From Psilocybe cubensis (taxonomy: Eukaryota): 64,000 nt of DNA. Position 1 is the stretch's first letter. Each line of letters starts with the position of its first letter. Below the pieces are notes generated by a model that had not been told where the DNA came from, did not search any database, and worked only from the letters and a program-made list of their open reading frames with translations. Location: positions 2,914,001-2,978,000 of the forward strand of contig CM039006.1 in the NCBI GenBank assembly GCA_017499595.2. The letters are read 5' to 3'. A program made the position numbers and the translations under genes. Of this stretch, positions 25,642-56,753 are shown piece after piece.

Positions 25642-25889
25642 TCAATGAGTATGGGTACGGCAGTGAAAATCTGCATTGTATGGAACCTGGTTGTTTTGCG
25701 ATGGACATTTTTGAACTTTAATTTTTCTTCTTATCCAAAAGAATGTAGTCTATATTTTGAATGGACCCATACTACATAGTATATAGTTATGTCTTGTGTA
25801 TGTAGCTTGGGAAATTTATGAGAAAGCCAGTACAAGCTGTGGACACGGCGGCGACAAAGGGTTCCGCCACATACAAAACAAGCACAAAC

Positions 25890-27224: not shown

Positions 27225-29285
27225 CTACGTATCTAGTTTCTCCACCAGCTCCCTGGAAATATCTGAGCGAGGTACAATTGAGCATACGAAAGGTTTCTTC
27301 CGACTGAGAAATATTATGAAATCTGTAAGAAATGGGCGTTTGAGCACGCGTCACATACCTAATAAGCCCAAATTCGCAGTATTCATCGTTGACCTCAATT
27401 GTATTTCCAGATTTGTCTCGTGCTTTTTCTAGATTGAAGACGGCTAAAACAGATGTGAATGTCAACCAGAGCTTTGGATATCTATTAGCAACCAATGTGT
27501 ATCTGAGGAGAAACCAGGAATTACTGTGGCACTGGCAACGTGCTTCCCAATACAAACTCTGTTTTTAATGAAGATAGAACGTTGTGTATCAGTTGCTTGA
27601 GATCCCAACACCAACCTCTCAGGGCATACCGTCTTCCAAAACCAAAGGCCATGATTCTATCATCGTCATTGAGCGTCCCATCAGGGTTAAAGAATCGTTC
27701 GGGATTAAAGCTCATTGGATTTTCGTATCTTGTTTCATCGTGTGTCATTGCCCTAGATATCTTGAATTAGAATTTCCATACAGCGGCGAGTTTGATCACA
27801 TCAAACCATATATTCCCTAGCAGTGTTGATCCTGCGTAAAATGACCTGAGACTTATGGTGCTGATGATAGTTAAAGGGCATGCGGGTACCTTTTGGAATA
27901 AAATATCCATCATAGAAGTCATCTTCAATTGAGCAATGCGGAACTCCCACTGAACCAGGTGGTCTCCATCGAAGGACTTCACGGTATATTGCCTCATTAT
28001 ACGGCATACATGGGCGGTCTTCATATGTTGGAAGCCGTTTGCCTCCCAATACACTGTCGATCTCTGCCTGTGCCTTCCTCTGGATATCTGGGTTACATAC
28101 CATGAGATATATGAACGTTCCAGTAGCAGATTGCGTCTAAAGACTCGACGTCAGAATATTTTAGTAATATATTGCTATTAATTGGTTACAGTGTCCGATG
28201 CAGCTGTGCAATAGTATATCAGCCTGTTCCTTATACATATGAAAGACAATAATTACCCGCATAAGCTGTCGAGGCAACAATCAATGTTGCCTCTTCTTCC
28301 TCCTTCGAAGCGCCAACAGTGTTTTTCTTCTTAAGGAAGTCTCCAACGACGGATGGTCTAGCATTTCCTTCTGCCTGGCAAAAAATGAAAACATTGTCAA
28401 GCTATACAAAATGACTGGGAAACCTACCACTTGTGCCTTTGTAAACTCAAGTGGTATTGAAACTACTTTCTTTGTGAGCATTCTAGCCTCTTGGGCCTTT
28501 TGTTGAGAAATCGCTCCTGGGAACCATGGCGGGACAAAACGAAGAAGGGGAATTAAGTTAATCAAACTTCCCCCAGGCGACAACAACTCCATTCCGAGAG
28601 TGAAGGTCTTATCTGCAGCTAATATGCACGGGTCGTCGGTTGATTTGGCGTCGTATCCGTACATTGACGACATGGGAATTGAAATTGACAACCTGCACAA
28701 TCGAGATATACGATGCAATACCATATTTTGAGCAAAAAGGCTTACATCTTGTTGTGATCCCAAAGTTTCTCTGGGCTGTGCAGTAACCCTTTGAGTGTTT
28801 TATGAACGCCTTTGACAATTGAGTTACTGATATCATTTCGTGGTGATGCAGCCCGACGAAATATTTGAAAGGCATGTTTTCGAACAAGACGCCATTTACC
28901 TCCGTATCTCATGAAACCAATAGTATATGAAGTCATTCCAGATCTAGAAATAGTCATGGTCATCTGCGATATCTTGATTGTTTATTATGATAACGTGGGA
29001 TCCAAAGGAGCTAGCGTGGAGGATATCACCTTGCGAAATTTGGCCATGTCAGTTTGCTGTCTTCAATAGTATTACAGTTAAAGTGAACTTGCTTCTGTAC
29101 TTCTTTCCCCACTGAGTATATTCAGGCCCAATGTTCTCAGTGGGGAAATCAAGCGCATTTCCGATGAAGGGGATCCCTTTGGGCCCAGGTGGAAACAGTT
29201 TCTTCTTTTTTTTAATTGTAAATAGCTTCATAGTGATGGTAGCAAAGAGTAAAGCAACGAGCAGCGCAGCAGAAGTGGATTGCAT
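27225..29285 (-). pseudogene. Cytochrome P450 (CYP64-clan / CYP5144-like), probably inactivated by an internal deletion near 28960
   Basis: N-terminal anchor plus PPGPKGIPFIGN, I-helix AYAAASDTT, EVLRWRP (ExxR), FNPERF and heme motif FGFGRRVCIG across about 11 exons. Exon 2 runs from NNQDIAD directly into an intron 3' remnant (gaccatgactatttctag) with an in-frame TAG; the usual 'LLEKR..YSDRP' segment and the splice donor are missing. Confidence 0.8.
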
Positions 29286-30189
29286 GGGTCTCGGTATACC
29301 AGAGTAATCAGACAGGGATTTCGGATTCTTCAGATATACTCGCCTTACTTTATACTCCTCATATGGCCATGAAGTTATTATTAAGGTAACAAATGCCCAT
29401 CATATTTATGAATAGCACCTGCATGTCGATGCATTAAGGTCCAGGATCAAATCGCTGGTATTGACGTCAAACGTATAAATACTAGACTGCTGCAATGTGA
29501 GGGCAACATCTTAATTGGAATGAAAGATGGTCACTGGGCTAGCTGTCATTGAGTAGTGGCACGTCCCATATGAGAATTTTTACCAATGTTGTCCCATGAT
29601 TACAGAGAGTAACCATTGATTGTGGGCTGATAATGAATAATGGCTTGGTCGTTTCAGCCACCATTCTTTATGGAAGATTTGCTCGGTTGATTAGTGCTTT
29701 TATTAGCATACACTAGCATACATTTCTCACCGACTCCTATCAACATTTCTTCTTCTCATTAAGGGTCTACCTTTCTTATTTCTGCCACGCGCTCTTTTCG
29801 ATATCCGCATGATTTCCAATGGGTGTTCCGGATGTTGCGCTTATAAACAGGGCAGCCAACGAGCAACACTGTCCTTTCTATATATTTAAACCAATCAATA
29901 TCCTCGAACAAAGACCTGGACATACCACTCTATTCTTGCTTTGGAATTACTTCAGACCAATATCTGACAGTGTTCTTGCAGACAAGATTAGGCTCGTACT
30001 ATGCACAGCCGCATAGTTACTAAGTTAGTCATCAATGTTTGACGACCACAATAAATACAACATTTCTACAAACAAATACCTTTTACCTACCATATTTAGA
30101 CAAAAGGCCAGAATCATGTGACACAACCAGACCTCGGTTCGCGGTTCAGAAAATGGCGAGTCCTATTCTTTCTCTTTCAACTGCACTAC

Positions 30190-30900
30190 TGCTTGAAGCC
30201 CGTTTGAACACTGGCCCGAGTTAATGTACAACGAACAAACGACACACACCCCTTTACACTCACAAAAATTCGGGTGTTCTATTCCCACATGTCGCGCTGT
30301 TCCTTGTGGGTACCCTTTCTCACCTAGATGTTGAGCTCACTACACGTTTTCAGGTGCGACAACGTGCAACCTGAAGTGCTGAGGTTAGACGGTAGGGTAT
30401 CTGGATACGTCATGGATGTTATTGTACTTGTCTATATGCCCGGTGGAGAGTAAGACATGCGAGAGAGGTGGCATTCTGTCCAGGTGCGTCAGCACTCTAC
30501 AGTGACTTTGGTGTTCGGTACTCAACCAGACGGCATGCTAGATACGGGCTTCGACATGTGTCCTGCATCAGCATTGGAGCTGCAGAGCTGCAATGGTCCC
30601 ACCTGTTGGGTGTATTATATTGCCAGTCTTTGTTTCTGCAGACTACGGAACATGGTACGTCCAGTTTTTCAATGTGCTACCAAAGGCACCATTTATCATG
30701 GTTTGTCTTCGGAGCAGTGCGATGTCATTTCGAGCGCATTGAATACCTGACAGTATGTTTACATCTCACAATGAGCTTCCGGCGTGCGAAACGCGTTTTC
30801 CTTGCCAGCGCCTCCTCTCTCGTTATGGGATTCAGCAAAACCCTGCTCGTTGTCCAATGCAGACCAACTCGTTGTATTGGACTCACTTTCACTTGACAGG
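30190..30900 (-). pseudogene. Degenerate copy B of the unidentified repeated gene or element
   Basis: Colinear similarity to 25890-26700 in the same orientation, with multiple stops and frameshifts. Confidence 0.6.
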
Positions 30901-32454
30901 CTCACAACTAGGTGCATGGCTCCCATCCTCCTCTTCATTTCTCCATTTTCACCGTACTTGCCAGTATCCACCCTCCACTCGCGATCCAATCACCATCTTC
31001 GACTCCTCACGTCCTAGATTCACTTCACATTGCACTTACTGGTATCTTTTTCCTCATTTCATCGCATTCATCACTCGTTATCGTGCTTTCCGCTTCCACT
31101 CACTCTCACGGCAAGTATAGTTTACTTTAAATGGCACTCAACCACATGTTCTCGAATCATCAGAAGCTTGGAGAGTATCGCTTTTGTCTTGATACAATTT
31201 CATTCTTTGTGTTGCTTGTCATGGGGTGCACTGGTCTGTATCACCACCATTGCTCAATCCCTTGCGCCACTTGGTCTCTATGTTTCGCACTCCTCACACT
31301 TGTCACTGCCATGGCTGAAATTTTGTTTATCTTCCTGTTTCTTCATGCTCTGAAAACCTGGAATGCAAGCCTCTGAGTGGCATTACCTCGAGCTTTGAAC
31401 CTTGATACTGGATCCCGGCATTTGGACGTTCTTGGCTTGGTACGTTAAGTAGCTAAATATGTGATTAGAATGCGCGGTCGCGGTCTCGAGGCCAGTCGTC
31501 ATCTCTCTGGGTGCAAACCTGACCAAGCCACTCACCCACTACTTTAGCAACCAAGACATGGTGACCTATCAGACAGATTTAGACTTTCTTTTATTCAAAG
31601 GGTCATGAGCGGTTGCAGTATGCCATGCAACTTCACCTGTGTTGTCCAATAATGTGCCGACACTTGGAAATTCATCATGTTTCGCCACTGGGGTACTCCC
31701 GCGCACCCCCTGATTGGTACAGATGTAGTCAGACTCTGCCGGTCGATATCGTCAAAGGCACGCACCGGAGAATCACAGGATTGGGAGTCATCAGTTTGAA
31801 GTGTAATTATAATCTTACATCAACGGAGTGATATAGGCGTTGATAATTGAAACCGCGGCCACGGTCGATCTGTGACGCGGATCAATGGGTACAGCCTTTA
31901 AACATCAAAATTATAACCAGACGAGGATTCATCAACTTTCTGTAGATCATCAGTACGTTTGCTCCTAGGCCTTGCAGAAATAACTGTTTCTTTCTGCAGC
32001 GTACTGACCACATGACCCTCGCCTTTACTGCTTCTATTGCATGTCATCAGTATAGTCCACTCGATGATGTACTTACACGATTGTTCTGTACAAGATATAA
32101 CAATATGAGGCAACCATCGATGTATTGCTTCCCATGAGTCCATTCAAATGCGATTTCTCCGTACTCAGGATCAAATTCGTTTGTATTTGATCAACATTGA
32201 CTCCAAAATCTGAAGGTACTTCTGTGTTATTTTGCATGAACCTTGTGGTTCAACTATTGCATGCGCTGCATTGTGACTCAGATGGAAATTCTCTGAAACA
32301 CTTCTTACTGTATAGCTTTCCACGTCAAGAGCAGCATGAGCAGAATGTGTCTACAAATGTGTCTACATATATGACATCCACCACCTTATGGAAACTCGCC
32401 CTTGACATATCCTCAAAGGGATCTCACCGCTTTTGTACTAGGACAACTACTACC

Positions 32455-34159
32455 ATGAGCTATACTTCAGCATCCGTGATTTCACCGCTCTTACAGGAAC
32501 TCTTTCACGGCCTCTTCATCATCGATTTTGCAAAATGCACCCAGCGTACGTGCATCACCCACATCCTCATTAAGCCTATACAGGGTGATCTCTAACGGAG
32601 AATTTTTCAATCTAGTTTCTGCTCTTATGATCGTCCTTTATGACTACGGTAGGCAGCAGCTGAGCCACCCTTTCTATGCTTCCAGTTTGTTGATATGACA
32701 ATTGAAAGCGATTACGTTCGAGCAAGAGGTGAGCACCTTACAGCGCATGACCTTCTTGTAGACCGTTTTATTTACCTGTAACAATATGACAGATGTCGTA
32801 TCTCTGGGTGAGTTTTATGTATACCCCTGAAGCAACCCAACACTCATTACTTGATCATATTCTTCTACATAAGAAAACTCGATTCAATTTCGTGAAGGTT
32901 TTATTCCTCCTGGTATGTCACACCACCCACTGGAGTTCGTCCGACCAGGACTTATCAAGCAAATAGAACCGGTACTACATCCTCATATCAGCAATGTCAG
33001 TCGCATTCTATTCCTATCCTTTGCAAGGGTACTGAATTTGACATAGCTACGCCATTCATAGTAATTTTATATTGCAACATGTTCTCTAGCATACTCTGAT
33101 TACTCGGTTGCAGTACTGTTCTTTTCTGATGTGGACAACAAGGTGCGGAAAATCTTGCAAGACTATCAATATATTGTAGCTCAACTTTTCATTAGTTGTA
33201 CGTCAATTAAAATTTAATTATCACAGAGTTATAATATGTCTACTGAACGCTGCCCAACTCTCCACACTCAGCTGTAAGTGTCGAATCATGCGTAGATCAC
33301 TTTGACGTGACTAATAATTTGAAGGCGTTCACTACATGCTGTGGCAAATCTGGTCAATTATTGTAACATCGACCCTAACACAAGGTGCGTTGCACACTTT
33401 TACCACCTGCCCATGGTGCCTTATTTTCGCGTTTCAGCCATCTTGCAGGCTCGACTATACGGACTGTATTCGAAGAATAAAAAGATACTCGCCATCATGA
33501 TACCTCTTTATGTGTTGTCAATCATCGCAGCAGTAGTGCTTGTGGTTAAATCAACTGGAGAAGTAACTGCTGGTAGGCAACAATTTGATCCAGACATTAT
33601 ATCTCCACCTCTAAATCAACCTCCCTTGCCTTACAGCTCACGAGATCATTGCTTTCCCAATAAACAGGGGGCATTACTGCATTGTAACCAGCATCCCTCG
33701 CTTTTCGCTTGCATATTGGATACCTGGATTTGCCTTCGAATTGCTACTGTGTGCGTTGGCTATCAAGAAAGCATTTGGCCATTTCAAACTCTACGGGTCG
33801 TATTACACCACAGGGGTCAGGATTGTCGATGTTCTTGTTGGAGATTCAATTGTATATTTCCTGGTGTGAGCATTTGAATCTATAAAATAACTGTGATGTG
33901 AACTAACCACCTTCTGATCAAGTATTGCAATGGTTTATGTATCCTGCATTGCAATTTGGATTGCGGACTTGGTGAGCTCTGTTTTCGGATGGGAAATTTG
34001 ATGATGTACTCATATCCCACGCAGGAACGAATTGATACTCCACTAGGCTTTGAGCTAACCATCTCATCTACGCTGTGCAGCCGGATGGTATTCAACATGC
34101 ACGGCGCGCTTGACAAGCGAGATATTAACCAAACAATTGATTCGGATGAGACCGATTAG
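32455..34159 (+). CDS. 7TM GPCR-like membrane protein, DUF6533 family, copy 6
   Basis: MSYTSASVISPLLQELFHGLFIIDFAKCTQ / SALMIVLYDY / ITFEQE / MSYLW / KTRFNFVKVLFLL / NRYYILISA / FCVHYMLWQ / ILQARLYGLY / GHYC..YWIPGFAFELLLC..LVGDSIVYF / ERIDTPLGFELTISSTLCSRMVFNM. Confidence 0.88.
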
Positions 34160-34340
34160 GTTACGTGGGAAGGCATAGAAGTCACTGATGCATTTTCTGT
34201 GAATGTGAGGGATTATCCAAAAGGTCATATTTATTGAAAGTCTACTATACATTACAAGTCCAATGAAATTTAAGATATGTTCTCCGATACCGTCCATGGC
34301 GTAAAATAGGAGCATCATGTAACTGGGCTTGGGCGTGATA

Positions 34341-36042
34341 TTACGTCTGACTCGTCTTTAACTCACTCAGCACCTCTGTCTCGTCGAGTGCTCCGTAAAG
34401 CTTGAAGATAATGCGACTACATAGTGTGGTTGATATGCTTAGCTCGAACGCAAGTGGAGCGTTGATTCGTTGCTGATATTTGTGTTGTTATTGCGGACTA
34501 AAGAGAGTTTTGACACGGACATACCACTTCAGCCACCCATACGGCTACGCAGGCCACATACACTAAGGTGATCCTGTGTCACATGAGTTGGTCTTTAGTA
34601 CTACATGAAATATTTAGAGAACACTTACACAAGGAAGTATAGAAGCGAGTCCCCGACAAGAATATCAACAAGTCTCATTCCTGTGGAGAAGTACGAGCCG
34701 TCATATCCCTTGAAGTGGGAAAAACCCTTTGCTATTGCCAGAGCGCACAGGCAAAACTCAAATGCCAAGCTGGGTATCCAATATACGTAGGTAACTCGTG
34801 TTGCATTTAAAATTCCGCAGAAGCGATTTCCAGGAATTGCAATTGCCCCAATTCCGTGATCTTTTTGCGCAATATAAATGCCATCAGATTGTTTAGACAT
34901 GAGGATGCAATGCTTACCGGCCAGCTCTTTAGAAGTTGCTACTGCAATGATTGCACTAGAGGCAGCGAGAGATAAGAAATGGAAGGTCAGGGTAAATGCC
35001 AGGAGTTTCTTGCTGTTTCCGTAGAGGGCATATAATCGGACCTGAAGAATCCCTATATGTATAATGTAGTACACACATCGAAGGCCGGATGTCAGAAAGC
35101 AAGGTTTGGTAAGGTTTATACATGTACATACCTTGAGTAATGATAGCCAAGACTATCCAGGAGACTATCTGCCAAATTATATACCTTTGGCCTGTATAAA
35201 TGTCAGAAAATGTATTCAATGATCAAGAGGAAGTCCTACTAACAGCTATTTACGAATGGTAGGCCAGGATTGTCTAGTGAGATCGTTTTTGTGAATGGAC
35301 ATAATTGAAATATGTACAACTGTAAGAAAAAATGAGTTTAATACGATTCGCCGTCACCTACAATGATTATTTGATACTCACAGTGTCATCAGGATTTTGA
35401 ACAAATAACCCTGTATTTGTAACATATGTTAGAGTGCCATTTAAATGAACACAATCATACCAGTTTACCGTATACAGCAATGCTGGGGGTAGTGCTTTAA
35501 TTATCGGGGTATTCACCAACCGAATGGATTGCATACCTTGATGCAGCAACAAAATAATAACGATTCTAAAAGTTAACGAGTCAACGTGGCATTATTACTA
35601 TAGATATAATTATAACATACCACAAAAAATAGTAGCTTGGTAAAACTAAAACGTTTTGTCTAGGATCAGGGATGAGCAAAATATGCCCGTGCCTATAATC
35701 ACAGACCTACCCACAAAAAGGTAATCTGGTGCATTCAGAAAGGATAAGTGTGAAAAATGAAGCGAAGAAAAATTCTGAGTCTAACCTCTTGGTCAAGAGT
35801 AAGCACTACATTGAAGGGTTAATCAAAATGCTTAACTTCTGTGGAATTGAGAGCTTACGGTAATCATACAAGATAACTGAAGTGGCAGATACTAGTAATA
35901 TAACAAACATGTTGGTGAGGCAAACATTTTAAAGCAATATAGCAATACCTTCAGCGTATTTAAAAAATTGGATGAGCTGAAGTCCATTAATCAGCTCATT
36001 AATAAGACCTGATAGGGGAGAAGTTGTAGTAGGGGTAATCAT
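34341..36042 (-). CDS. 7TM GPCR-like membrane protein, DUF6533 family, copy 7
   Basis: MITPTTTSPLSGLINELINGLQLIQFFKYAE / SATSVILYDY / LTLDQE / ITFLW / NRYYFVAAS / FCQRYIIWQ / ILQVRLYALY / NRFC..YWIPSLAFEFCLC..LVGDSLLYF / RINAPLAFELSISTTLCSRIIFKL, TAA at 34341. Confidence 0.88.
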
Positions 36043-37438
36043 GGTAGAGAAGCTCACTTTCCATTCCTTTGAAAGTGCAAAGTCGTTCTTATATGAGACC
36101 TTGCTATATTTTTGGTCAAACAGCTTACCACGAATTACCAATGCTTGAGTTCCACTCCACAACAAATTGCCGAGCCACAGATAATGAACGGCCGAGGTAG
36201 TGGCATATCCTGTGTGCAGTAAAAACATGGTGATCCATGGTTGTAGTCTCAGAATACTATTGCATTGACATTCGGGAGAACTCAAGGACTCAAACGTTTG
36301 ACACCTTGTATTTCAGGAGCACGGTTGTACGTGTCTCCCTTACATTGATCAACATATTCTCCTTGTTACATTCCAATTTTAGAATGTCCCGACACCCTTC
36401 CCGATACTATTCTTCCACAGCTATTCTAAATCTCTGTCGGGAGAAGATCCAAAAGGTACTCGATCTGCTGTCGTGTCTTGATGCCATTCTTACTGTCAAG
36501 GTGCAAAACTAAGGTAAACAGATTGAGGGATGGCAGAATCAGGAGGTCACCCGTACCGATACTATTGTACATGTATAGGGGACTATTGGATTATGCCAAC
36601 CACACAGCATATTGTATGGAGAGGAGAGCAACTTCTACCAAAACAGTGGTATAAAGGGGTGTGTATAGTTTAAGATTGTTGGAACTGCATGAAACTCGAT
36701 CGATAATGACAATCGTGAGTTAGAGGCTCCCCTTGATATATGTCCCGCATAACGTGAGATACCTGTCAGCCCTTATCTAACCAATCCAGAGCGTAATAGT
36801 GTACAGAGGATATCCACGACGGTAAAATTGGAGCAGAAATAGTACATGATACGAGGGAATCAAACAGAGCGGCTATCTATCCGAACTGGGGTGGAAAAAC
36901 AAGTTATTCTATGTTCAAATAGGCCTTGTACAAAGTGAATACAGCTGGAGCATCTCAGGACTCCATGAGTACAGCTAGGAAAGTTCGCTATTGCTAGACA
37001 ATACTGAAATTATGAAAACAAAGCATTACTGGAGTACACTGGTTTGGTGAATGATAAGTGCTTGAGTATTGAGGTCACTCGTAATTTCATTATATTTCAG
37101 GCTTCTGGGGCATATCAACACTGAAACGTATGTTTCTTCACTGTCCTCACCACTATATTAGTTCTGTTCTGTGCTTACATCACCGGTGTTTCTTAAAATC
37201 ACTAGAGTAGACGACATTTAGACTCCGAAGTGGCAGGGATCAAGGAGCGTTTCATTCTATCATTTTACGTCTAAATTTAACCCATATCTAGCCTTAGGAA
37301 AAATAGGTTAAGCATACAATCCCCGTATGCCTATGAGATTTGGTGATTGGATGGGTAAACCGAGCATTCCTTCGATTCTCATCATGATTACCTCCCCCAC
37401 CTCTGGAAGTAATCTTCTTTATGACAATTTTGATCGTT

Positions 37439-39146
37439 TCATTTGCCCAGATCACTGTGCGTTTCTGTCTTATTGAGAGCGCCATATAGCTTGAATATCA
37501 TTCGACTACACAGAGTGGAGGATATGCAGAGTTCAAATGCCAGTGGGGCATTGATTCTCTCCTGCGAACTCGGATATCAGAACTGGTCAGAATATTTGTT
37601 GAACAGGGGCCTCACCACGTCCAGTATCCACACCGCAACACAGGCGACATAAACCATGGCAATTCTAATCGAACAGTCTGTGAGCGTAGCCAACTTTGAC
37701 AATAAAAATTGTGAACGTAGCTTACACCACAAAATACAGGATCGAGTCTCCAACGAGAACATCTACAAGCCGCACGCCTGTAGAGAAGTGGGCCCCGTAA
37801 GCCTTGAAGTGCACGTATCCCTTTGCAATTGCAAGCGTGCACAAGAAGAACTCGAAGGCAAAGCTGGGTATCCAGAAAGCGAATGCTATGCGGGGCGGGG
37901 CAAGAATCCCGCAGAATTCTCCTCTTCCTGGGATGGCAATGGCCTCAATAGAATTAGCTTCAGAGATAGTGTCAGCCTTGTGGCAAATCATATTGCATAC
38001 AAAACGTGGTATGCTCACTCTTTCTCTCTTCTGCCGTAGCCTTCAACACTGTGACGGCGGATACGATTAAGGAAAGTACGTGGAATGTCACCGTACAGAC
38101 TAGCAGTCGTTTGCTTTTCCCATAGAGCGCGTACAATCTAATTTGAAGAATAGCTGTTGTTTTTGACTGTGAAAAAGCGTTGAAGGAATTTAAACAAAAA
38201 ATGATTGGTTACCTTGAGTCACAATAGCAAGGACTACCCCCGTCCAGATTTGCCAGACCACAAATTGTGAGCCTGTCAGAGATTCATGTAAGCCAGATTG
38301 CAGCAGAATCGAAATATACTCACAGCTACATATATGCGAAAGACGCAGCGTAAATCACTCCTTGAACGATGCATTAGTGTAAAAATCACGCACAACTATC
38401 AGTAGTAAATATATATCAATCATCCGATTATACACTACAATTTTGTGCTTACCTTCTGACTGGGGTCAGCCAAGTATAGGCCTGAAAAATCGACATTAGA
38501 CATATAACTTCGCTGAGAGTTAATATTTCACCATATAGAGACACCCTAAATGGCCATCATTAGAGTTTTAAACAAAGTGTATGTGCATTGTCTAGCACAC
38601 ACCCAGCGGCTGTAACAAAATAATAGCGATTCTACTCCTGTAGAGTCAGCATGGACGTACCACGGCTGGATTCAGTTATGCGTACCAAAAAAAATAACAC
38701 CTTTACAAAACTGAAACGTTTGTTCTTTACAATGTTTAGTTTTGAGCCGTCTAGGATACATTTATTGGGAAAGATGTACCCAGAAATAGGCTTTCTGTTT
38801 TGTCAATGTTTAGAACAAGCATTACAGAAGAGGAGAATGAGTTATGTGCCTCTTCATCAAGGGTTATCACTAAAGTAATGGTTGATTGACGTAGAAACCT
38901 GGAATCAACGGCTGCTTACAATAATCATACAGAATGATTGTGAATGCCGATACTAAATAAATTGTGATACTGAGACTTGCAATTTGTATAAAATGAGGAC
39001 AATGAAGACGCACACTCTGCAAATTTGAAGAACTGTATGAGCTCAAGTCCCTGAGTCAATTCATTGATGATTTGAGGAAACGACGGGGTATTCATTTCAG
39101 TGTCAAGGGACAGCATGGAGGGAATATCCTCATATATTTCAGCCAT
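37439..39146 (-). CDS. 7TM GPCR-like membrane protein, DUF6533 family, copy 8
   Basis: MAEIYEDIPS...GLELIQFFKFAE / SAFTIILYDY / ITLDEE (GC donor) / KAYFW / NKRFSFVKVLFFL / NRYYFVTAA / FCSQFVVWQ / ILQIRLYALY / GEFC..FWIPSFAFEFFLC..LVGDSILYF / ERINAPLAFELCISSTLCSRMIFKL. Confidence 0.88.
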
Positions 39147-40631
39147 GTTCTATTCTTAACGTTCATATCAAGGCACGTAAAGTAGGAGTACCACGATTGC
39201 TTCAAAATTGATTAATTTTACGCATTTTGTGTTCGAGGCCGAACAATCAAGGAATGTGGTAAGCTTTTGCATGCAGAGCGCAGCACCGTGGACACAATAA
39301 CAACATGCCGACAAAGGTTCAGAGCAGATATCATCTCACTTAATCAGCTTCCTGTCTCTTTCTGCATTTTATCTGTGATATTTCTTCATGTACTCAGCAA
39401 ATTTAGAAACAAATTCTCGGATTTGACTCAATAATTCTCACATTTGATGGGGAGTTGTCGGTTGGACAAATTTAGGACTTGATCCCAGCCAACACAAGCA
39501 GTAAAGATGAGTTGGATTCAAATGTACGGTCTTCTCACTGGTAAGCGGCAACAACTTTTCTTTTTCCATGTTGACTTGATGATCATTAAAAATTATGAAA
39601 CATGAGAAGATCTTAATCCTGAGGAACAAGTATGCCCAGACTGAGATACGTCCGTTCAGTTGTATTGGCTTCTTAGTTTTTACTAGTAAATCCTGAGGGA
39701 ACGGCTGACACAGTGGCCTTTGGCATATACATGTGTTTATCCGTGCTAGATCCTTTTTTGCTGCCTTGAACTCGATTCTAAGGAGAGTTCTGGCGGAGAG
39801 CAAAATCAGAGCTTTGTACTAGCGATCCGAGTCCAAAATGCACGTAATCTAGGGAGCTCGTGCCCAACCATTTCTGACTTAGCTATTTGTGGCTTCGTCG
39901 ATCGTAACACCGTGCGAAATTGACAGCCCGTGCGAACATATCACCAAGAACTGCCGACGTTTGCGATGCGGCAAGATTATACTAGACCAGGTAAGGTGCT
40001 GGCATATCAAATTAATCGTTCTAGTTGTTCAGATCTATCAATAACTTTTAAACTGTACTTGTGATTAGACCAGTCAGTCACAAGACAATATTGAAAGATA
40101 TACCTGTCAGATGTCTCATTGGCCAGGTTATTTTTATCATGTTCATATAAGTGTTCTGTTAACAATTAAATATATCATAAGTGCTAGAAGACGCTTCAGC
40201 TGTACAACACCTAGCCTTTTAAGTATTTAGAACGTATAGTGACATATAAGATACAGTTCCTGCTGCATATTTGATGCCCTTGAAGCTAATGCGAGATAAC
40301 AATATGGTGACATGGTATTGTCACATTTTTAAATGTGGTGTCCGAACTGCTCTTGTCTGCAATAACTTGCCGGTATGGGAGTAAAATGCTTGACTCCGAG
40401 TCATAAAATGAGCATTGCTTACACCAATAGATAAGTAGGAACAACTTATCGTCACAAGGTATGCTTCTCTATTATATGTGACTCCGACCATCCCTGTAGC
40501 AGAACCGAACAAGACCTTTATCATTGATATATCTGCATTTATCTTGTACAGCCTTGGTTTTCTTCTCGGGCTGACGTACATTCTCACCTTTTCAGAAGTA
40601 TAATATCCTTGCCAAATGTAGACAAGACACA

Positions 40632-42136
40632 ATGCCTGCTTTCAACCTTCCCCTTCTTTACGACACAATCATTGTCGACATTCTGAATGTTTTCTGCACA
40701 TACTCATACAATGGTTTCAATAGTACCATTGACTCCAAGGTCTTTAGCAGGATGGTTGCCTCACAGATATGGGGGGATCACGAAACAGGAAAACTTACAA
40801 ACGATGAGGCTCATGCAGCACTTGCCAAAGAGTTCAAAGTGAACATAGATGACGTCCGTTCTGCCATGATTGGAGCAATAACAACTCTATCCCCTCGACA
40901 AGAGATGGTTGATCTGATTCGATCCCTAAAATCTGGGCGCAAAATTTACGCGATGTCAAATATGTCTGAACATTCATGGAACATGATCAGGCATGCCAAA
41001 CCTACGCACTGGGATATCTTTGATGACGTCTTCATATCTGGTTCTGTTGGGTATCGCAAACCTGAAATGTTGTTCTATCAACATGTTCTCCAGAAAACGG
41101 GCGCTAAACCTTTGCACACCATATTTTTAGACGACACCCAGGAGAACCTGGCAACAGCACGTATATTTGGAATTAGGCCCATCATTTTTGACAGCTTTTC
41201 CAATCTTGAAAGGACCCTAATAAACCTATGCGGTGATCCTGTCTCCCGAGCTAAAGCTTTCCTTGTCAGAAATTCGAAAAAACACCATTCCTACGCTTCC
41301 ACCGGCCAGATCATCTACGAAAACTTCTGTCAGTTGATGATACTAGAGGCAACCCAAGATCCCTCTATAGTCGATTATCGTGTCCACAAGGAGGAGTGGA
41401 ACTTTTTCCAGAGGTCAAGTGGACAGTATACAGACGCAATATTTCCAGCCGACCTCGATACTACATTCATGGCGTGGACAGTGATCCCGGAGGTTACAAC
41501 CGACACTGTCAAGCACAGAATAATGGATAGAGTAATTTCGGACCTTTTGGATAACGATGGAATTCCACTTTCTTATTTTGATAGAAATCGTGCGAGAAGA
41601 GACCACGGAGTCTGCGTAAACGTTCTCAGCATGTTCTATGCAAGCGGGCGAGGCCATGAGGTCGAACGGGCAACCGACTACGTGTATTCACTGCTTGAAT
41701 CTGGTGCTTATCTAGAAGGATCGAGATACTACAGGTCACCAGAAACATTTCTGTAGTAAGTTATATTATGCTACATATTGTCTCATCCAGCTCATAGCCT
41801 GAAAGCTTTTGTTCTCGATTATTGGAAAGGTCTTCTCTGCTCGAATGTCGTATGGGGGATTTGCTTAAAGAATGCTGCCGTCAGCGCATCGGATCCCCTA
41901 CAGACCCTTTGGCACTAGCCATGCGTCTTCATTGTTGCACACGCCGTGGTCTCGATGCCAGTGTCGATTTTAAGAAGCTCATCGAGTTACAGCAGGTAGA
42001 TGGTGGGTGGGAAGGCGGAATCATCTATACATATGGATTGGTCAATATAACAGTTGGTAATAGGGGCTTAACCACAGCAATAGCTCATAGGGCTATCACA
42101 GAGTATCTCTCCAAGTTTGGTCCCACTTCGAGCTAG
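40632..42136 (+). CDS. Bifunctional HAD-like phosphatase / class II terpene cyclase (drimane-type sesquiterpene synthase, AstC/DrtB-like), 484 aa, one intron 41756-41805
   Basis: N-terminal HAD domain (AMSN, GYRKPEMLFYQHVL, FLDDTQENL = DDxxE); C-terminal cyclase with FPADLDTT (DxDTT, 41451-41465), SYFDRNRARRDHGVCVNVLSMF, GSRYYRSPETFLYF and QW-like QQVDGGW; a 50-nt GT-AG intron joins the two ORFs in frame. Confidence 0.9.
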
Positions 42137-42649
42137 CCTCATACATGATCTGATTTGTAAATAAGCATAAAATATGACACTACCGCGTCGGTGATCGGCT
42201 CGCTTTAACTCTGGACTTCGAATATGAGTATTGGAGAAATTCACAGTTGCGAATTATTCATTTTTAGAGTGTTCTGAGACGACCTGATGGTGCAAAAAGA
42301 CGACTCGGAAATCCGTGGATTTTTTGGCGTGAAAAATGTTAGGTGAATTTGGCTTTGTTTGTTTTGGCTTTGTTTGTTACCTCCACAGTCACTCCTTCTC
42401 ATATTCACTCTGCACTTCCAGCGGTGACTATTCCTGTGGTCCGCCTCGACAAGAAAGGATTCCGGTCAGCCTAGAACTGATGGTTGACAGCAGTCAGCAA
42501 TGGCTCATCTTCCAGTCGCACATTAAGATACCGTCGTACGGGCACGCTCCTTATTGTCCAAGAGTCGTATTCAAACTCACCGCTTTGCGCATCTCGAACA
42601 ACCAACCCTAAACACTTGCTCTCGTCTTCTCTTTCTTATTGTCTCCATG

Positions 42650-43500
42650 CTCGGTGCGCGGGAGTCAGTACATGCAGGAGTCTGGTCGCAGCGGGAATCG
42701 ATCGCATAGAAGGTATTCCAGGTGCGCCGTTGTCAGCGTTGTGCATACGTACGACATACCTAACACTCAAAGGCGGTGGGATTGGGTGTGACCTGGTGTA
42801 AGGTCTGTCTGAGTCACCAAGACAGAAGCAGAGGTTGCAGTGTACTTACCATTGCATACAGTCTTGCTGTACGGGACACTGCGCATACACTTAATGTCGG
42901 GACAATTCCAACAGCGCAACACATGTGGGGAACCGTAGGAAGCTGGGGAGACATTGTGGAGCAAGCATAAACACGGATGGTGAGTACCCCTTTGCTGGAC
43001 TATCGGATTCTGTGGACAGGGGGCGTTTTTCTCAAGTTTTACGGACCAGGACAGTATGCGTTCCCAACATTTCCTGTCTCTGCTGCAGGCTGCTGGAGTT
43101 CTATCCTGTTTACCTCGGTATTGGCACTACCCACCAACGTCTACCTACCCTACCCAAAGAAGACAAACCACGCAGACGGTTTCTGAATGCGGGAACATAT
43201 TGAAAAGTACGCTCATGACAGCATCTCTTCACAGTTCAAGTTGGCCTACCTTCCGAGAGTACTCCCCCACTGTTGGCATATCACTGCCCAACATTTTGCG
43301 CACTTCAGAAAAGCGAGGATGACGGTGGAATTATGTTTGAGTCTGATATCTACTATGCACGCGGGAAATTTATGCGCGAAAACGCACCTATATCTCTGTT
43401 TTTATCCGCTTTTCTCACTAACCCAACAGCGCGACCTTCCAATTTTCCTCCATCCCATTTCTACCATTCAAGGGAGTACCTGCCCTGCTTTGCTGATGTT
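42650..43500 (-). pseudogene. Possible third, more diverged relic of the unidentified family (copy C)
   Basis: Short translated matches in the same order as in copies A and B (QPAAETGNV ~ SAETKTGNI; HRL*V...QRRTW ~ HAVWM...YQRTW); many stops. Confidence 0.3.
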
Positions 43501-44904
43501 TCCTTTCCCGTCCGTCGCATGATCGGCCTCCCTTTGCCCTGGTTACATCTCACCATACCCACGGATGCGAAAGGGTGTATTGGGTGTACCATCGAAGGTT
43601 TTTATGGTGTCTTGTTCGTTGCCAGCGTTGATTCGCACTGTAGCTTGTAACCTATAGGAGCGACACAGTTAGTTTCAAGTCACCACTTTGTCGATAACAG
43701 CACCAAGGGACCTTTGGATTCCAAATCCATGCCATGTCCTCTCCGCCTTTCCTCTTCAACCATCCATATGACGACTATCGCTTCTCCCTTCGATATACAC
43801 CCTTGACGTAAACTGGCTTCTTAACAGATGGACAAATGGGACAGCGAGTCGGTCGGAGTCGATTTGCCTGCGATAGGGAAAATGACATCGTTCCCCATTT
43901 CCCTTCATCATTTCATCATTTCATCATGATACTGATGTGATGTATGGCGTGCAAGCGACTCGATACCGTTTTGCATCCGATACATAGTCTGATTCTGACA
44001 CGTCAAGGGATGTCATCCGATGACACCTCAGCAGGTTGCAGACGCCGGGCGCAATAACCATTTACTGAGAGCAGCTTTGATGTAGCCATAGCGGTCCACC
44101 CCTCTCCCGTTCAATCATGATGGATATGAGCTCAGATGGGTTGCGTCTGATGGTGGGACCACTCGACCACGTATCACCTTTCTGCATCTACTGAACCAGA
44201 GAAGGTACGAACCACACCAAATTATGCTATTTTCACGTATCACACGTCAGGTCGGATGTCAGGTCGGACGTCCACGCACGAGACTCAACACCATCCACTA
44301 TCCCTTGGACACGACACGCGGAGAGTCGTCTCTTTAAATCTTGGATAAGGTAAGCCAATTTGCTTTCACTATGCGTTCGTATTGTGCACTTTAAAATATA
44401 GAGGGTGATCATGGGATTCTGCGCTGCTTTTGAGGCACGCCCGATTGCTAGAAACACATCTTTGTGTTCCATGCCGATGCACCGAGGTAATACACACACC
44501 TGCGGTAGAACCTGTTCACTTCAGAGTGGAGATAACAGATATAGGATTCTGCGCGGGTGTGAAAGTCTACCTGATCGCCAGAACACACGCTCACACGAAC
44601 GTTTAACTCGCATCTCCGGTCTCTTATCTGCATCTCATGGCCTAGTTCAAACTTTACCATTGTGTCTCTCACCAGCATTCACTCTAACACCCTGCCCTGC
44701 TTTGCTGTGCCAATTCAAGTGCTAATCAAACTTGTTCCTCTGTTTTCTCGGTACTCGCCAGCTGATGATCTCTTTGACGCCCCGCGGTGGTCTGTTTCAC
44801 TTTGCCCTGGCTATTTCTTACTATTCTTCAAATCTACGGTCTAAAGCTTGTGATTTCTCTGTATATTAACGTTTACTGGCGTCTATTCTAGTATCGGATC
44901 TCAT

Positions 44905-46612
44905 CTACTCTTTCAATGTCCACATTGAACCTGAATAACCCTGGTAAAGGCGGATCTCGGCTTTCGTTTCTTGATGGCGCCCCATGGACATTCAATAGGA
45001 GTCTGTTGCAAAGTGTCGACGAGAGAGCCACCGAAAAGCCCATTGGTGCGTCGAACCGCTCCTGTAACTTGAATTAGGCGAATTTTGGTTGCAGTGTTAT
45101 GACTATGCGTACACTATCAACTTTCCACACCGCTATGCAGGCAATGTAAACTGCACCGATTCTGTACATCTTAATCAATATTCTGCGTTACGTGGTGGGA
45201 TGAAGGCCGAAAACGTACGCCACGAAATAAAGAACGGAGTCTCGGACCAGGACATCTACGAGTCGGGTCCCCGGTGACCGGCGGTGGTGAATTTCAAAGT
45301 TTCTATAGCCCCTGAAGACGGCCAATGTGCATAGCAGCCACTCAAAGCACAGGGTTGGGATCCAAAATGTGTATAGGTAGCCCGGTATCTTCTCAATGAC
45401 GCAAAACATCCCACCAGGTATGACCGTGGCTCTAATTGTGCCCCCTGTGACGGTGTATGTGAACGAGGCTCCTCGGTCAGCTTGATGAAAATTCCATACC
45501 TCTTCGTTCTTGTACAATGGCGTTTGTCATGATTGAAACACACCCCACGATAGTGAGGAGGTAGAGGGGTACAATACACGCCAGAAATCTTCTACTCTTT
45601 GAGAAAAGGACGTACAATCGGACCTGCAAGATGGCTAGTTTAACCCAGCCGGGTGGAGTCAGAGAGTCGTACATTTTTGTATCAGTGCTGCATGTCGGCT
45701 TGAGATACCTTGTGAAATAATGATTCCAATAACTCCAGACCAGGCTTGCCATTCCATTAGTCGAATACCTTGTCTTCTGTTAGCCGAACTCATCAAGGAA
45801 GCGATTCCAAGTCACTGCTTACAGCTTTGAAAACAGTGCAAATCATCGCTTAAACTGAGCGTTCTTTACGTGAAATCTTGGAGAACGTACAACTGTATTA
45901 TCGTTGGGCATCAGAAAATCCTTCGCATGCAGGAACAGGAAATAAAATGTTTACCTGATCGTTTATGTTGGAAGTGAAGTATGCTAGATAGATGATTCGA
46001 AAGGTTGGCATAGCATGGAAATGACGTTTGATTGTACTCGCCGTATGCTGAGAATCTACGCCCGTCATATTTAATCCAGCTGATAAAACAGGATAAACGA
46101 AACGACATACACGGACGCTACCAGAAAATAGTATCGACTCTGATACACTGGAGTTAGTTTGCGTCGCAACCCGACGTTGAATACGCACGAGGAAGAACAA
46201 CCCTTTCACGGGTGTAAAATGCATGCGCTAAATTATCACGAGGTTCAAATACAATATTCATGTGCAAGACGGTGAAGATATACCCAAAGAAATGATATCT
46301 GATATTCGAGTCAAGATATTCAGTATGGTTATGTGTTGTCCGCTCAGCCATGTTTACCTCCTGATCAAAAGTCAAAACTAAGAAGAGATGAGCGTACAAT
46401 CCATGAATTCTACTTCAGAGGGTCTCATACTATAATCATACAGAATAATGCAAACAGCCGATACTGTAAAGTACAAACATAAGCAGTGTGTTGTGAGGGA
46501 GCCCATGTCACATACGCCTGGCATAACGGGTTATCTGTATGATTCCAATCTCGTGTATTGTCTTCGTCATGATATCATTGGGGAACGATGAAGGGATCAA
46601 TGTCGTGTTCAT
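44905..46612 (-). CDS. 7TM GPCR-like membrane protein, DUF6533 family, copy 9
   Basis: MNTTLIPSSFPNDIMTKTIHEIGIIQITRYAR / SAVCIILYDY / LTFDQE / ISFLW / SRYYFLVASV / FCIRLMEWQ / ILQVRLYVLF / GMFC..FWIPTLCFEWLLC..LVRDSVLYF / RFDAPMGFSVALSSTLCNRLLLNV, TAG at 44905. Confidence 0.88.
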
Positions 46613-48287
46613 GAAGACACACACAGTAATACTTGGTACAATTTGCAGAAGCGTTGTTATAACCCTGTCGTGTGCATATATTTGTCTCGAATCATCGATT
46701 TGGTGAGTATCCGGCGAGCAGGATACATCGATTATTATCAGCTTGTGAGCTTGGATCGGGGATTAAAACCGGTTCTGAGAGGTTCTTCTCCTTTAACTGC
46801 TCCTATACGGATGAGAAGCATGCCCAATCTTATCATGTATCAAGGTTTATGGTGTAAGAAAGTTATATACACAAGTACAATACACATGAGGGCATACTTT
46901 GCCACAAAGAGCTATTTTATCCTGATCGATTAATCAACACAAATTTCTTCGTGAAAACCTGTCCTGCACGTTCTCCTGATCACTTGCTCACTGAGGTTGA
47001 AGTATTACGCTGTGGCTCTACGAAAGCGGATATTCAAGAATTTGGAAGGTGTATGCTGGGAAGTTGTACTTGTGGCAGCCATCTATCTGAATGAAAGACG
47101 CGGGTTTCATTGCTCTAGAAAAGCTGATTTATTGATGTCCAATCAAGAGAGATTGCAGACGTAAATGTGTCTGTTGAAAATCCGCGCACGGACCACCTAA
47201 TCTTAAATTGGCTTTACATTCTCAGGATCTCTGCCGCAACCGGCGTGCCCGGGAGCAAACAGCCAAATTTGGGTATTCTGATTAAGAATCCCTAAACATG
47301 GCACAGAAAAGCAACAGGTGAAGCCAAAGAATAGGAATGATATGAAATGAGGCGAGATACCCGGGAATTCAAAATTGAAGCTCGAGTGTTGGGACGATGT
47401 GTATATACGCACCACTCCCGAGTTGGCGTCTAGAATAAATTAATACGTCTGCATTAATAGGCTCTTTGGATTTGCATACGTGTGCTGTCGGAGGTCCGTC
47501 AACCTGAAATATGGTTCACTGACAATGTAAATGAACTACCATTGTCCAGTCATGTGTGTGTTGTAAACGCGACCAACATTGGTAGAACTGGTCAAAGATT
47601 CTCTGTATGGCCGTCTCAATGTTGAATTCAGTAATTAGGTTTGGTCGTAAGTCTTGCTCTACGTCGTAGTACAACGCCGCTGAGCACTTGTATTGCTCAA
47701 AACCACTGATCATAGGCTTCTAATGCGGTTGAAACTCGGTGAGAATGGTGATAACTAGACCGAATGAATGATTGATACCGGTGACCGTACTCCATCTGTC
47801 AACTGAAGGGAACGTGAACTAAAATTGACAACAATTTCCCAGATTCTCGGCCTGGTAACTTAGTATATTCCTGAAGAACGTGTGTTATCGTTGTTACTAA
47901 CTTGACACAGATTGATATATAGGGCTATCGACAATGATAGGTATTATGTTTAAACATTTTTTCTATCAAATGGCAGGGCCGAGCATTTAAACACATTAAG
48001 GATCTATTGTAGTGTTATAAATTCCAAAGAAACTAGAGGTTGTGTCTCAACCCATGTCCCGACCTCGATATGCAATGTGTTTTGAGATACTATCATATGA
48101 ATTTCCGTTCCGTCTTATAACTCTAGGAATTCCGTAACTCCTGTGGTTTCTAATGGCACGCACGTTTCTAACTACTGATGTAGAGCATCCGCAGATCAGA
48201 AGATTCCATAATAGTGCTATGCCTTACCATGACGGCTGATGTACAGACAGACCTCCCTACGAATATTTGATCTGTCGGTCGTACACT

Positions 48288-48352: not shown

Positions 48353-50092
48353 ATGGATGTAACATTCCCCATACCTCCATCTCTTCAGCAGGGCTTTGAA
48401 GAATTAATTAGTGCATGGAAGATAGTTCAGCTGACAAAGTACACCAGATGTAGGTCAGACCTTCCAAAATCAATATTAATCAAGTTCTCACTAGTTTATT
48501 TGTGATCCCAATAGTATCTGCGGTATGCATTCTTTTCTACGACTATGGTAGGGCTTACACATTTTAGTCCCTTAACACACCTGACCGAGTGCCATACATA
48601 ATAAGCCATCACATTTGACCAGGAGGTAAGTTCTCCTGAAAAAATAATCTGCAATACATTGATTGAGACCTCAGATATCCTTTCTGTGGGTAAGCAAAAG
48701 TTGCGAATCATGAATCACCGTCTGCGAGTTCTGATAATGACAATTTTTTCCATAGAGCAGAAATTTTAAGTTTGTCAAGCTTCTCTTTCTCCTGGTAAGG
48801 TCATAAGGAGGCCAACAGGATTGAACCAGATGACTGACCTCAAACAGAACCGATACTATTTCACTGGAGTGGCTCCGTATGTGTCAATGTATTATAATCT
48901 ATCCTATTATGTCAGGCTTACTCTCTGGAAGGTTTACAATTTATGGTATAGGCTATTATTATGCTGATAACTCTCGCTAACACTTTTTTCCTCCTCGAAG
49001 CATATTTTTCTGGAAATATAAATTACAATGTACGTTTGACCCACACGTCAATTGGCTGATATAATAATTTTTCTTAGTTGTAGGCCTTTACTTTGCCCTC
49101 TAAATTATTCATGCGTGTGAATGATAGGCCATGACGTTCGTTAATCTCCAGCTGTAAGCAAAGTTGTTCTTCTTTGTGTAGCTGTGTTTTCTGATAGTCA
49201 TACCTGCGCAGGTGTGCATTTTATTAGCTGGGAATTGTGGACTGGTATTATTGGGATTGTAGTTCCTCAAGGTCAGTCCTTGGACATGCCTTGACGTACT
49301 ATTAGAATCCATGGAAGTGTGGAAAATAGTACTGATCTATGTTTCAGCCATTCTGCAGGTACGGATATATGCACTATATTCACAACGGAAGCAACTATTG
49401 GCATACTTGGTTCCCCTCTGCATGATAACCGGTACTGCTTCGGCCACAATCATAAACATAGCCTTCAACCAGGCAAAGACAGGTGAGTTTTATGTCTAAC
49501 GTTACTGTCATTGAAGTGACACATCTAAATTGAAGATGGCGCTATCAATGCACTTCCGACTCCTGGAGGAATGTTTTGTGTCATTGAGCACGTCCCATCC
49601 TATCTATACACCTTTTGGATCCCGATTCTGTCATTTGAGTGCCTGTTGTGCATTTTGGCGCTGATTCAGGGCGTGGAAAACTATAAAGCATATGGAGATC
49701 AATATAACTTGTGCATGCGATTTCATGGAATACTGGTCCGTGACTCTGTGGCATACTTTCTTGCGTGAGCTACCTTTTCACCTGCCTCCCGAAATCCTAA
49801 CCGTTACGTTTACGCTATAAATTATAGGATTGGTGGAACATACTTAGCATGCATGCTAGTTTGGAAACTTTCCCCAGTAAGATTTCTTTTCTTTGGGCAG
49901 GACATTACGGGCCAATGCTGATGTATGCTTCAGAATCGCTTTGACGCTCCTATGGGATTTACTGTGTCTGTGTCTACCACATTATGCAATCGCTTATTGC
50001 TCAGATTGAATGATATGGCATCAACCTCTGTGGATGGCACAGACATAACCACTATGTATACCAGCACCACAGCTAACTCCGACCTTGAATAA
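48353..50092 (+). CDS. 7TM GPCR-like membrane protein, DUF6533 family, copy 10
   Basis: MDVTFPIPPSLQQGFEELISAWKIVQLTKYTR / SAVCILFYDY / ITFDQE / ISFLW / SRNFKFVKLLFLL / NRYYFTGVA / FCVHFISWE / ILQVRIYALY / GMFC..FWIPILSFECLLC..LVRDSVAYF / RFDAPMGFTVSVSTTLCNRLLLRL, TAA ending at 50092. Confidence 0.88.
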
Positions 50093-51606: not shown

Positions 51607-52634
51607 AATTAGATTTCAGAAAGGAAATTTGTCCTCTTCACTTGCCACCCTGCAGCGGCCGTGTTACATTTTGTGCTTCTTGCATTGCTTCTAGCGCTTC
51701 GGTGTTTCTTTTTAAAATATCATTAATCCTTTGTCTTCCAGATACCCTGAAAACCAGTAACAAGCCCAGGTTGCGCATTTACTTGTTTTCTATAGTGAAT
51801 CTGGTGTTATTCTTTCATGTTTTGCAAATGCGATACCTTTTTATACTGAAAAAGTGATATTAAAACTCCTGGTTCCCCTAAGTTACCATTAATGCATGGC
51901 TGGGAAACCACCCAGGCTGGCAGGTATATATGTACTACTTCAAGGTCTGAAGAAGAGCATAGATCTCTGGCTACAAGCATTATCAGGAAGGTTTCTGAGA
52001 AAAGTCACGATGGAAATAAATGTCACTTGTAGTGCGTCGCCTATCAGGTTAGTAGTGAGTATATTAGAAGCTGTCAAGAGAATGAATCGGTTTAAGACTG
52101 CGCGGCCGCTTCGTATCCAGGTACAGGGAACCGATGGAGGTGTGCAGGATGCGCTAAGTTGGATGTTTAGTGTCAGTTTGGTGGCATCTGAGTGTGATTT
52201 ACAACCGCAAATGAGCAAAGATTAGAGATATAGGCTCCTAATATTCAGAGAGCTACTCCGCAAACATTACTGGATTCATAGCAGATGCTGCTATGAAATA
52301 CCACTTCCACCTCATGGCCTATCTTGTCATCCAGTGGGAAGTTCTGGTTACTTCTTCGCATTTTGGATACCCATACTTAGTTTCGAGGCATTACTTTGTT
52401 CCATGGCAATTATTCGAGGGGTTCGAATTGCCACATCCCGAATTTCTGTCAATAGAAAGGTGGACTCAACATTTTTTGGTGACGGCCAACGAATACTTGG
52501 CAGTCTTGTTCAAGATTCAGTCTTGTATTTTTAGCGTACGTTTGATCCTATTACCTCACTACATGCTAACCAGGCACCTTTAAACTTGGACTATGACTAG
52601 TATTGGGGCCACATACGCGACTACGGTTTTTTTC

Positions 52635-56674: not shown

Positions 56675-56753
56675 CTATTTGCCTAGTGCTAGTGCTTTTT
56701 TGGCAGGCGCATAACAGCGAATCCTTGTTCACACACCCAGTGACATCCTGCCA

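Follow-up and report, generated by a model that had tools for sequence, protein, structure and literature searches.

A HAD-like terpene cyclase gene within an array of DUF6533 receptor-like genes of Psilocybe cubensis, probably a passenger among its neighbours

A stretch of 64,000 nucleotides (nt) from the Psilocybe cubensis genome (C9:2914001-2978000; 46.6 Mb in 21 contigs), referred to below as the window, carries an intact gene for a haloacid dehalogenase (HAD)-like class II terpene cyclase-phosphatase between two intact copies (8 and 9) of an array of DUF6533 genes, 11 intact copies of which lie in the window (numbered 1–10 in window order, plus a last intact copy; Table 1). The cyclase gene is considered to be probably a single-gene duplicate that is carried along among older receptor genes as a passenger, without a functional tie to them. 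An ordinary HAD-like class II sesquiterpene cyclase would have arrived in the array by duplication of a single gene, in a region that would also have taken in a duplicated cytochrome P450 gene and a mobile element, and its role would lie in chemical defence, its product gradually departing from the one made by the paralogue on contig C7. A functional tie finds little support: receptor genes are missing around the C7 paralogue, the array predates the window copy, the P450 gene carries a deletion, and the defining elements of a B mating locus are absent.

The cyclase gene extends from an ATG at 40632 to a stop codon at 42136 and is interrupted by one GT-AG intron of 50 nt (41756-41805). Its spliced product is identical to UniRef entry A0A8H7XNK4 (P. 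cubensis, 484 amino acids). The HAD domain PF00702 was recognized with 36.2 bits at a Pfam cut-off of 26.4, the closest match in the PDB was AstC (E 5.7e-84, residues 10-474), and the drimenol synthase AsDMS was ranked first in a fold search with the cyclase model, whose confidence is low at residues 202-343 in the cyclase half. The protein thus has the fusion of an N-terminal HAD domain with a class II cyclase beta domain by which HAD-like terpene cyclases are recognized. It contains the motifs DDTQEN (167-172) and DLDTT (274-278) as well as a QW-like stretch (QQVDGGW), the acid/base motif D274-L-D276-T-T being accompanied by the helper residues N330 and Y367. When counted by hand on the alignment, residues D271/D273/T274/N324/Y361 of AstC, whose roles were taken from PMC13244436, correspond to D274/D276/T277/N330/Y367, and K314 of AstC corresponds to R320, a change from lysine to arginine that AstC tolerates (PMC13244436). 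The candidate phosphatase residues (D16, S109-N110, K143, D167-D168 and N172) were invariant across eight aligned proteins. HAD motif I reads DILNV in the window cyclase versus DVGNV or DLGDV in the C7, P. cyanescens and Paramarasmius proteins, with Leu18 at position D+2 where the relatives have Gly. The predicted enzyme adds a new member to the HAD-like cyclases already known, and its original assignment to the AstC/DrtB/AncC type was upheld, as were its intactness and position.

The cage residues F232, F259, F271, Y449 and Y451 of the window cyclase are shared with the AstC-type enzymes. Its aromatic pocket set F258/Y315/Y366/Y451 matches that of the AacA variant Y253F/F444Y, which yielded albicanol and drimenol at a ratio of 2.8:1 (PMC13244436), and because of this resemblance a mixture of albicanol and drimenol may serve as a first guess for the product. 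A bicyclic drimane would not be obligatory, since Termitomyces DS3, which has the same motifs, produced monocyclic products (PMC10126200). The main text of a headspace study of P. cubensis (PMC13096983) names no drimane and contains no word starting with 'drim' or 'albican', a weak negative given that alcohols, phosphates and oxidized products may escape. No word starting with 'drim' or 'haloacid' occurs in the main text of two P. cubensis terpene papers, and a literature search for Psilocybe together with HAD-like or haloacid dehalogenase terms returned nothing.

Three copies of the cyclase were found in the genome, located on C9 (the window), C7 and C12. The C12 copy is a pseudogene with a disrupted 5' part, stop codons and deletions, whereas the C7 gene is intact and its product 78% identical to the C9 protein. 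The DNA of the C9 and C7 copies aligns at 80% identity from the ATG to 12 nt beyond the stop codon and nowhere else in 40 kb, and the similarity of their flanks was no better than that of shuffled sequences. Searches of 80 kb around the C7 cyclase with four profiles yielded no DUF6533-like exon (best E 0.3); the full-length profile recovered 30/30 control loci. Among the neighbours of the C7 gene, those with Pfam names (104 of 182 frames scanned) comprise an AMP-binding/PP-binding enzyme, a diacylglycerol acyltransferase and an AAA ATPase.

With P. cyanescens as the outgroup, 53 private changes were assigned to the C9 copy and 16 to the C7 copy, at branch lengths of 0.24 and 0.042, respectively. 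The ratio of nonsynonymous to synonymous substitution rates (dN/dS) of the pair was 0.157 at a dS of 0.755, and both copies were grouped in a five-sequence tree at 92/91 support. The C7 protein is the slow one and lies nearer to the outgroups, homologue P0004 being 91% identical to C7 and 76% to C9. The receptor genes were saturated at silent sites in all seven pairs tested (proportion of silent differences 0.77-0.85), including the closest pair, copies 7 and 8, and the P. cyanescens matches of copies 1 and 2 are situated two tags apart on one contig; the receptor duplications are therefore older than the cyclase duplication. These comparisons mark the window cyclase as a younger, fast-evolving duplicate of the C7 copy that is still under purifying selection. 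In this most likely case, the locus adds a fast-evolving HAD-like cyclase to the terpene set of P. cubensis, and the C9/C7 pair represents a natural experiment on product choice and phosphatase activity.

Self-comparison of the window revealed 12 related large exons, and stop-free models were obtained with a custom spliced aligner for the 11 window copies and three further copies just outside. Copies 8 and 9 contain 14 introns each. Internal exons of 33, 20, 15, 39, 29, 14, 29, 2, 2 and 60 nt are common to 10 of the 11 copies; in the model of the remaining copy, a single 4-nt exon stands in place of the two 2-nt exons. Identity among the copies ranges from 27 to 62%; copy 8 is nearest to copies 7 (62%) and 6 (51%), whereas copy 9 is 44% identical to copy 8 and not its sister. 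PF20151 (DUF6533) was matched above the cut-off in the annotated proteins of copies 6, 7 and 8 and in 23 of the 31 longest homologues (of 150 listed). No homologue turned up among 49 candidates when the large exon of copy 8 served as the query, but a profile search did find homologues. The AlphaFold model of the annotated copy 7 protein shows seven long helices, and its second outer loop forms a beta-hairpin (predicted local distance difference test score 77.5), and in Foldseek searches with it G protein-coupled receptors (GPCRs) and rhodopsins were ranked first, albeit weakly (best E 0.021, none below 0.001). The array proteins would accordingly share a seven-helix GPCR-like fold, modelled for copy 7 alone, and the label 'receptor', which the original prediction had given them, appears reasonable.

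On C9 (3,132,992 nt), about 155-220 kb separate the window from the contig end; the array, at a distance of about 180 kb, extends beyond the window, comprising at least 17 family loci over about 158 kb (C9:2903000-3061000), the densest group in the genome-wide list. Genome-wide, 107-131 DUF6533-like loci were mapped, i.e. at least 131, with 47 matches belonging to the subfamily of the window. The Pfam model at its cut-off misses another, distantly related DUF6533-like family, which comprises at least 24 loci, including clusters at C12:368957-382295 and on C11. Since the spliced scan was blind to such distant genes (58-73 bits, noise up to 64), distant-family and N-terminal profiles were added.

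Two features of the receptor genes were observed in addition. Successive 2-nt microexons, TT and CT, are present in every intact copy (in copy 8 at 38395-38394 and 38325-38324, minus strand); they help encode a conserved Phe-Cys at the top of helix 3, their bases are identical in 6/6 copies compared, and the public gene models of copies 7 and 8 disagree with the present ones at these sites. The clade of copies 6, 7 and 8 carries GDS in helix 6 versus the usual RDS of the family, and a Glu is present in its helix 7 (FEL); these differences may point to an altered ligand or mode of activation.

Copy 8 and the cyclase are arranged head-to-head and transcribed divergently, with an ATG-to-ATG distance of 1485 nt, close to the 1.5 kb originally given. 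The spacer holds a decayed dispersed element with 24 other matches in the genome (76-87%). Five aligned copies of about 197 bp are 95-99% identical to each other and 81-85% identical to the spacer copy, so that the family must have been active recently. Capture of the cyclase by a Helitron, suggested by the end of the spacer element near CTAG, was ruled out, as the element is only about 200 bp long and ends 600 nt before the ATG.

Several observations weigh against a mere passenger. Only 0.18-0.22% of the genome has DUF6533-like loci within 5 kb on both sides, and under a uniform null the probability that one of three cyclase copies is so flanked is about 0.006. For the C12 pseudogene, three members of the distant DUF6533-like family lie at a distance of about 9 kb, so that 2/3 cyclase copies are found within 10 kb of a DUF6533-like gene, a distance that covers 3.5-4.2% of the genome. 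All these fractions rest on 107-131 mapped loci, which are lower bounds, and the test was made post hoc. P450 genes are likewise enriched near DUF6533-like loci, with 9 of 89 within 10 kb (2.4-fold; 4.2% expected, p 0.013) and 16 of 89 within 20 kb (7.5% expected, p 0.001), at p values that are too small because both gene sets cluster; this regional enrichment accounts for the low probability only in part. In addition, both DNA runs inspected, X8 and X9, keep the layout with the cyclase in place (30/30 bins of 27001-47000). A move from C7 to C9, rather than the reverse, is suggested by rates and the five-sequence tree, not by synteny, and the accelerated evolution of the window copy under purifying selection would agree with co-option for a new function as well.

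These points are tempered in several ways. A functional reading of the proximity is weakened because the test was post hoc, the C12 copy is dead and P450 genes are enriched as well. The C12 neighbours matched PF20151 at E 0.039, which is under the cut-off, and the N-terminal profile built here gave E 4.5e-4 for one of them; the surroundings of this copy also include KDZ-type transposase, F-box/LRR, TPR-CHAT and DUF6535 genes (88 of 163 frames scanned). Differences from the window amount to about 0.3-3% over the long pieces of X8, which is labelled as another organism, and of X9; no single contig spans cyclase and receptor, and both runs are too close to the window to test selection on the linkage. 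A metagenome scan for the locus returned three short, distant loci, and contigs of two RNA runs from one study, which cannot show absence, covered neither the cyclase nor copies 6-8. Taken together, insertion into a fast-evolving region, named as the null hypothesis in the original prediction, fits best; it is not proven, and the placement is improbable under a uniform null.

The P450 gene announced between copies 5 and 6 was confirmed by a PF00067 match. It is located 11.3 kb from the cyclase, with copies 6-8 in between, and shows 76% DNA identity to a pair of P450 genes 430 kb away (C9:2.50-2.51 Mb). Compared to both paralogues, it lacks about 90-100 nt near 28961, a gap that takes in the last part of exon 2 with its donor site, and is therefore probably broken in this assembly. 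Run X9 has about 103 extra letters at this site and is full length there, so that the loss is polymorphic or recent. The cyclase and the P450 gene could form a young or decaying two-gene cluster for drimane tailoring within the chromatin domain of the receptors; the receptors themselves would respond to other cues, for example peptides or damage, and might activate the region. The similar age of the two duplicates (80% and 76% DNA identity to their paralogues), the full-length allele of X9 and the enrichment of P450 genes near DUF6533-like genes would agree with such a cluster. HAD cyclases of Aspergillus and Antrodia are located in clusters. The arrangement is nevertheless judged unlikely: three receptor genes intervene, the P450 gene is broken while the cyclase is intact, and no P450 Pfam match was obtained in 40 kb around the C7 cyclase (104 frames scanned; short exons may escape). 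Termitomyces DS1-DS3 have no P450 gene within 30 kb and no tailoring genes nearby (PMC10126200). Adjacent intact tailoring genes, as expected for a drimane cluster, were not found, the next candidate besides the P450 gene being an epimerase-type gene about 19.6 kb away, and the anticipated association with P450 genes and oxidoreductases did not hold at this cyclase.

Alternatively, the duplicated cyclase might have been recruited into the old orphan GPCR-like array and now be evolving a terpenoid self-sensing or developmental signal that is read by one or several neighbouring receptors, most likely of the clade of copies 6, 7 and 8. The head-to-head arrangement with copy 8, the low probability of the placement under the uniform null and the accelerated evolution at a dN/dS of 0.16 speak for it, as does the predicted GPCR-like fold of the neighbours. 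In its favour as well, the structural relative Gpe1 is a proven GPCR (PMC13652807) and SNB1 controls fruiting-body patterning (PMC10949477). On the other hand, the only ligand known for a relative, that of Gpe1, is a peptide (PMC13652807), and a beta-hairpin in the second outer loop, as in the model of copy 7, is typical of peptide GPCRs. The receptors are older than the window copy of the enzyme, a mobile-element remnant interrupts the spacer, no STE3 gene is present on C9 (0/40 PF02076 matches), and the headspace study mentioned above, a weak negative, has none of the expected words in its main text (PMC13096983). A signalling role is consequently held to be very unlikely. Of the synthase-plus-receptor locus initially envisaged, the physical layout has stood, and the placement is rare under a uniform null; the receptor-free C7 copy, the age of the cyclase relative to the array and the deletion in the P450 gene argue against its functional part. 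If it were true nonetheless, a ligand would become available for a large orphan mushroom receptor family (at least 131 loci here), namely a small molecule acting on a DUF6533 receptor, and a terpenoid self-signal would be known together with its synthase and receptor.

Least probable of all is that the window represents the ancestral site of the cyclase, linked to the array since before the split of P. cubensis and P. cyanescens, with the C7 copy having moved: in P. cyanescens, the cyclase is on a contig of 10,947 nt, apart from the match of the downstream neighbour of the C7 gene (contig of 28,511 nt), but the C7 protein is the slow one and nearer to the outgroups, and none of 12 identified P. 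cyanescens array homologues was placed on a contig of 10,947 nt (26 of 150 representatives looked up).

The remaining features of the window are listed in Table 1. The SnoaL-like, tRNA, Ser/Thr-rich, DUF6699 and epimerase-type genes are other, unrelated passengers, and an Rfam scan found nothing besides the one tRNA. Two spliced units without a long open reading frame (ORF) lie between the cyclase and copy 9. The first is single copy in the genome and very variable between strains; over 43054-43756, 89 letters plus gaps set run X10 apart from the window, X9 shares the letters of X10 and X8 is window-like, a pattern of two deep haplotypes in a non-coding stretch. The second runs in antisense across the 3' end of copy 9, where an intron of the unit overlaps with the final intron of the receptor gene, and is possibly an antisense regulator. 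No convincing ORF for a peptide ligand was present in the three spliced units. Direct repeats of about 1 kb (60-64% alike; 25811-26887 and 30091-31099) flank the P450 gene. Both retain splice-like signals, the lengths of the gaps between them are not divisible by three, splicing of the right copy is seen in X10/X11, and no further copy was found in the genome.

Table 1. Features of the window (positions relative to its first nucleotide).
Feature	Position	Strand	Remarks
SnoaL-like gene	789-1232	-	passenger
DUF6533 copy 1	5172-6811	-	5' end = first aligned codon; P. cyanescens match 67%
tRNA	8307-8390	+	passenger; sole Rfam match
DUF6533 copy 2	8510-10119	-	5' end = first aligned codon; P. cyanescens match 64%
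Ser/Thr-rich gene	16304-17221	+	passenger; apparently secreted and glycosylphosphatidylinositol-anchored (by eye)
DUF6533 copy 3	19061-20703	+	spliced model
DUF6533 copy 4	21624-23309	+	spliced model
DUF6533 copy 5	23981-25641	+	spliced model
Cytochrome P450	27225-29285	-	PF00067; between copies 5 and 6
DUF6533 copy 6	32473-34159	+	start = first aligned codon; P0017, PF20151 58 bits
DUF6533 copy 7	34341-36042	-	P0015, PF20151 57.1 bits
DUF6533 copy 8	37439-39147	-	15 exons, intact; fragment P0164, PF20151 25.0 bits (cut-off 24.1)
Decayed dispersed element (~200 bp)	39850-40022	.	inside copy 8/cyclase spacer
HAD-like class II terpene cyclase-phosphatase, intact	40632-42136	+	exons 40632-41755, 41806-42136; 484 amino acids
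Spliced unit without long ORF	42388-43756	+	GT-AG joints 42797/42915, 42978/43054; contigs of runs X10, X11
Spliced unit without long ORF	43932-45339	+	joints 44347/44400, 45044/45094
DUF6533 copy 9	44888-46612	-	15 exons, intact; placed by homology
DUF6533 copy 10	48395-50092	+	spliced model
DUF6533 remnants	52226-52531, 55661-55876	+	array remnants
Last intact DUF6533 copy	56739-58429	+	spliced model
DUF6699 gene	60186-61085	+	passenger
NAD-dependent epimerase-type gene	61723-62166	+	passenger; ~19.6 kb from cyclase

The locus resembles the B (pheromone/receptor, PR) mating locus in having several diverged seven-helix receptor genes in mixed orientation. The ligand of a B locus is a gene-encoded lipopeptide rather than an enzyme product. 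The STE3 genes of this genome are situated on C2, C3 and C10, and a search for CaaX precursors, in which intron-bearing ones were not sought, gave two unconvincing single-exon ORFs in 114 kb and none at 37-47 kb. Because C9 lacks STE3 and no convincing CaaX precursor was found in the 114 kb, the locus is not a B mating locus. A sesquiterpene/GPCR signalling gene-cluster locus in Agaricomycetes was not described in the literature retrieved, as far as it was available.

The window cyclase shares the HAD plus class II beta domain architecture and the acid/base pair with its helpers with AstC, AacA, DrtB and AncC (PDB 22TZ; PMC13244436). It differs from them in that no compact cluster surrounds it, from AstC in motif I, where AstC has Glu and the window protein Asp16 with Leu at D+2, and, along with the other Psilocybe proteins (all three), in having L453/V454 in place of S450/K451 of AstC. 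Among basidiomycetes, Termitomyces DS1-DS3 (PMC10126200) and Antrodia AncA are HAD-like cyclases with DDxxE, DxDTT and QW motifs like those of the window enzyme; the likeness to DS1-DS3 is one of motifs, and DS3 gave monocyclic nectrianolins, not drimenol (PMC10126200).

The receptor-like proteins have a counterpart in SNB1 (snowball) of Coprinopsis cinerea, a DUF6533 seven-helix membrane protein of Agaricomycetes that controls fruiting-body patterning and whose family is low-copy (1-5; PMC10949477), in contrast to the 47 matches of the window subfamily in this genome. Gpe1 of Ustilago maydis is activated by a peptide cut from Pit2, and its structural relatives carry DUF6533 (PMC13652807). Like Gpe1 and these relatives, the window copies combine seven helices and a DUF6533 N-terminus with a conserved basic residue in helix 3 (LQxRxY) and, in helix 6, a pair led by Asp; this pair reads DS in the window copies, against NN in Gpe1 and DG in other relatives. 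For Gpe1, a yeast reporter exists.

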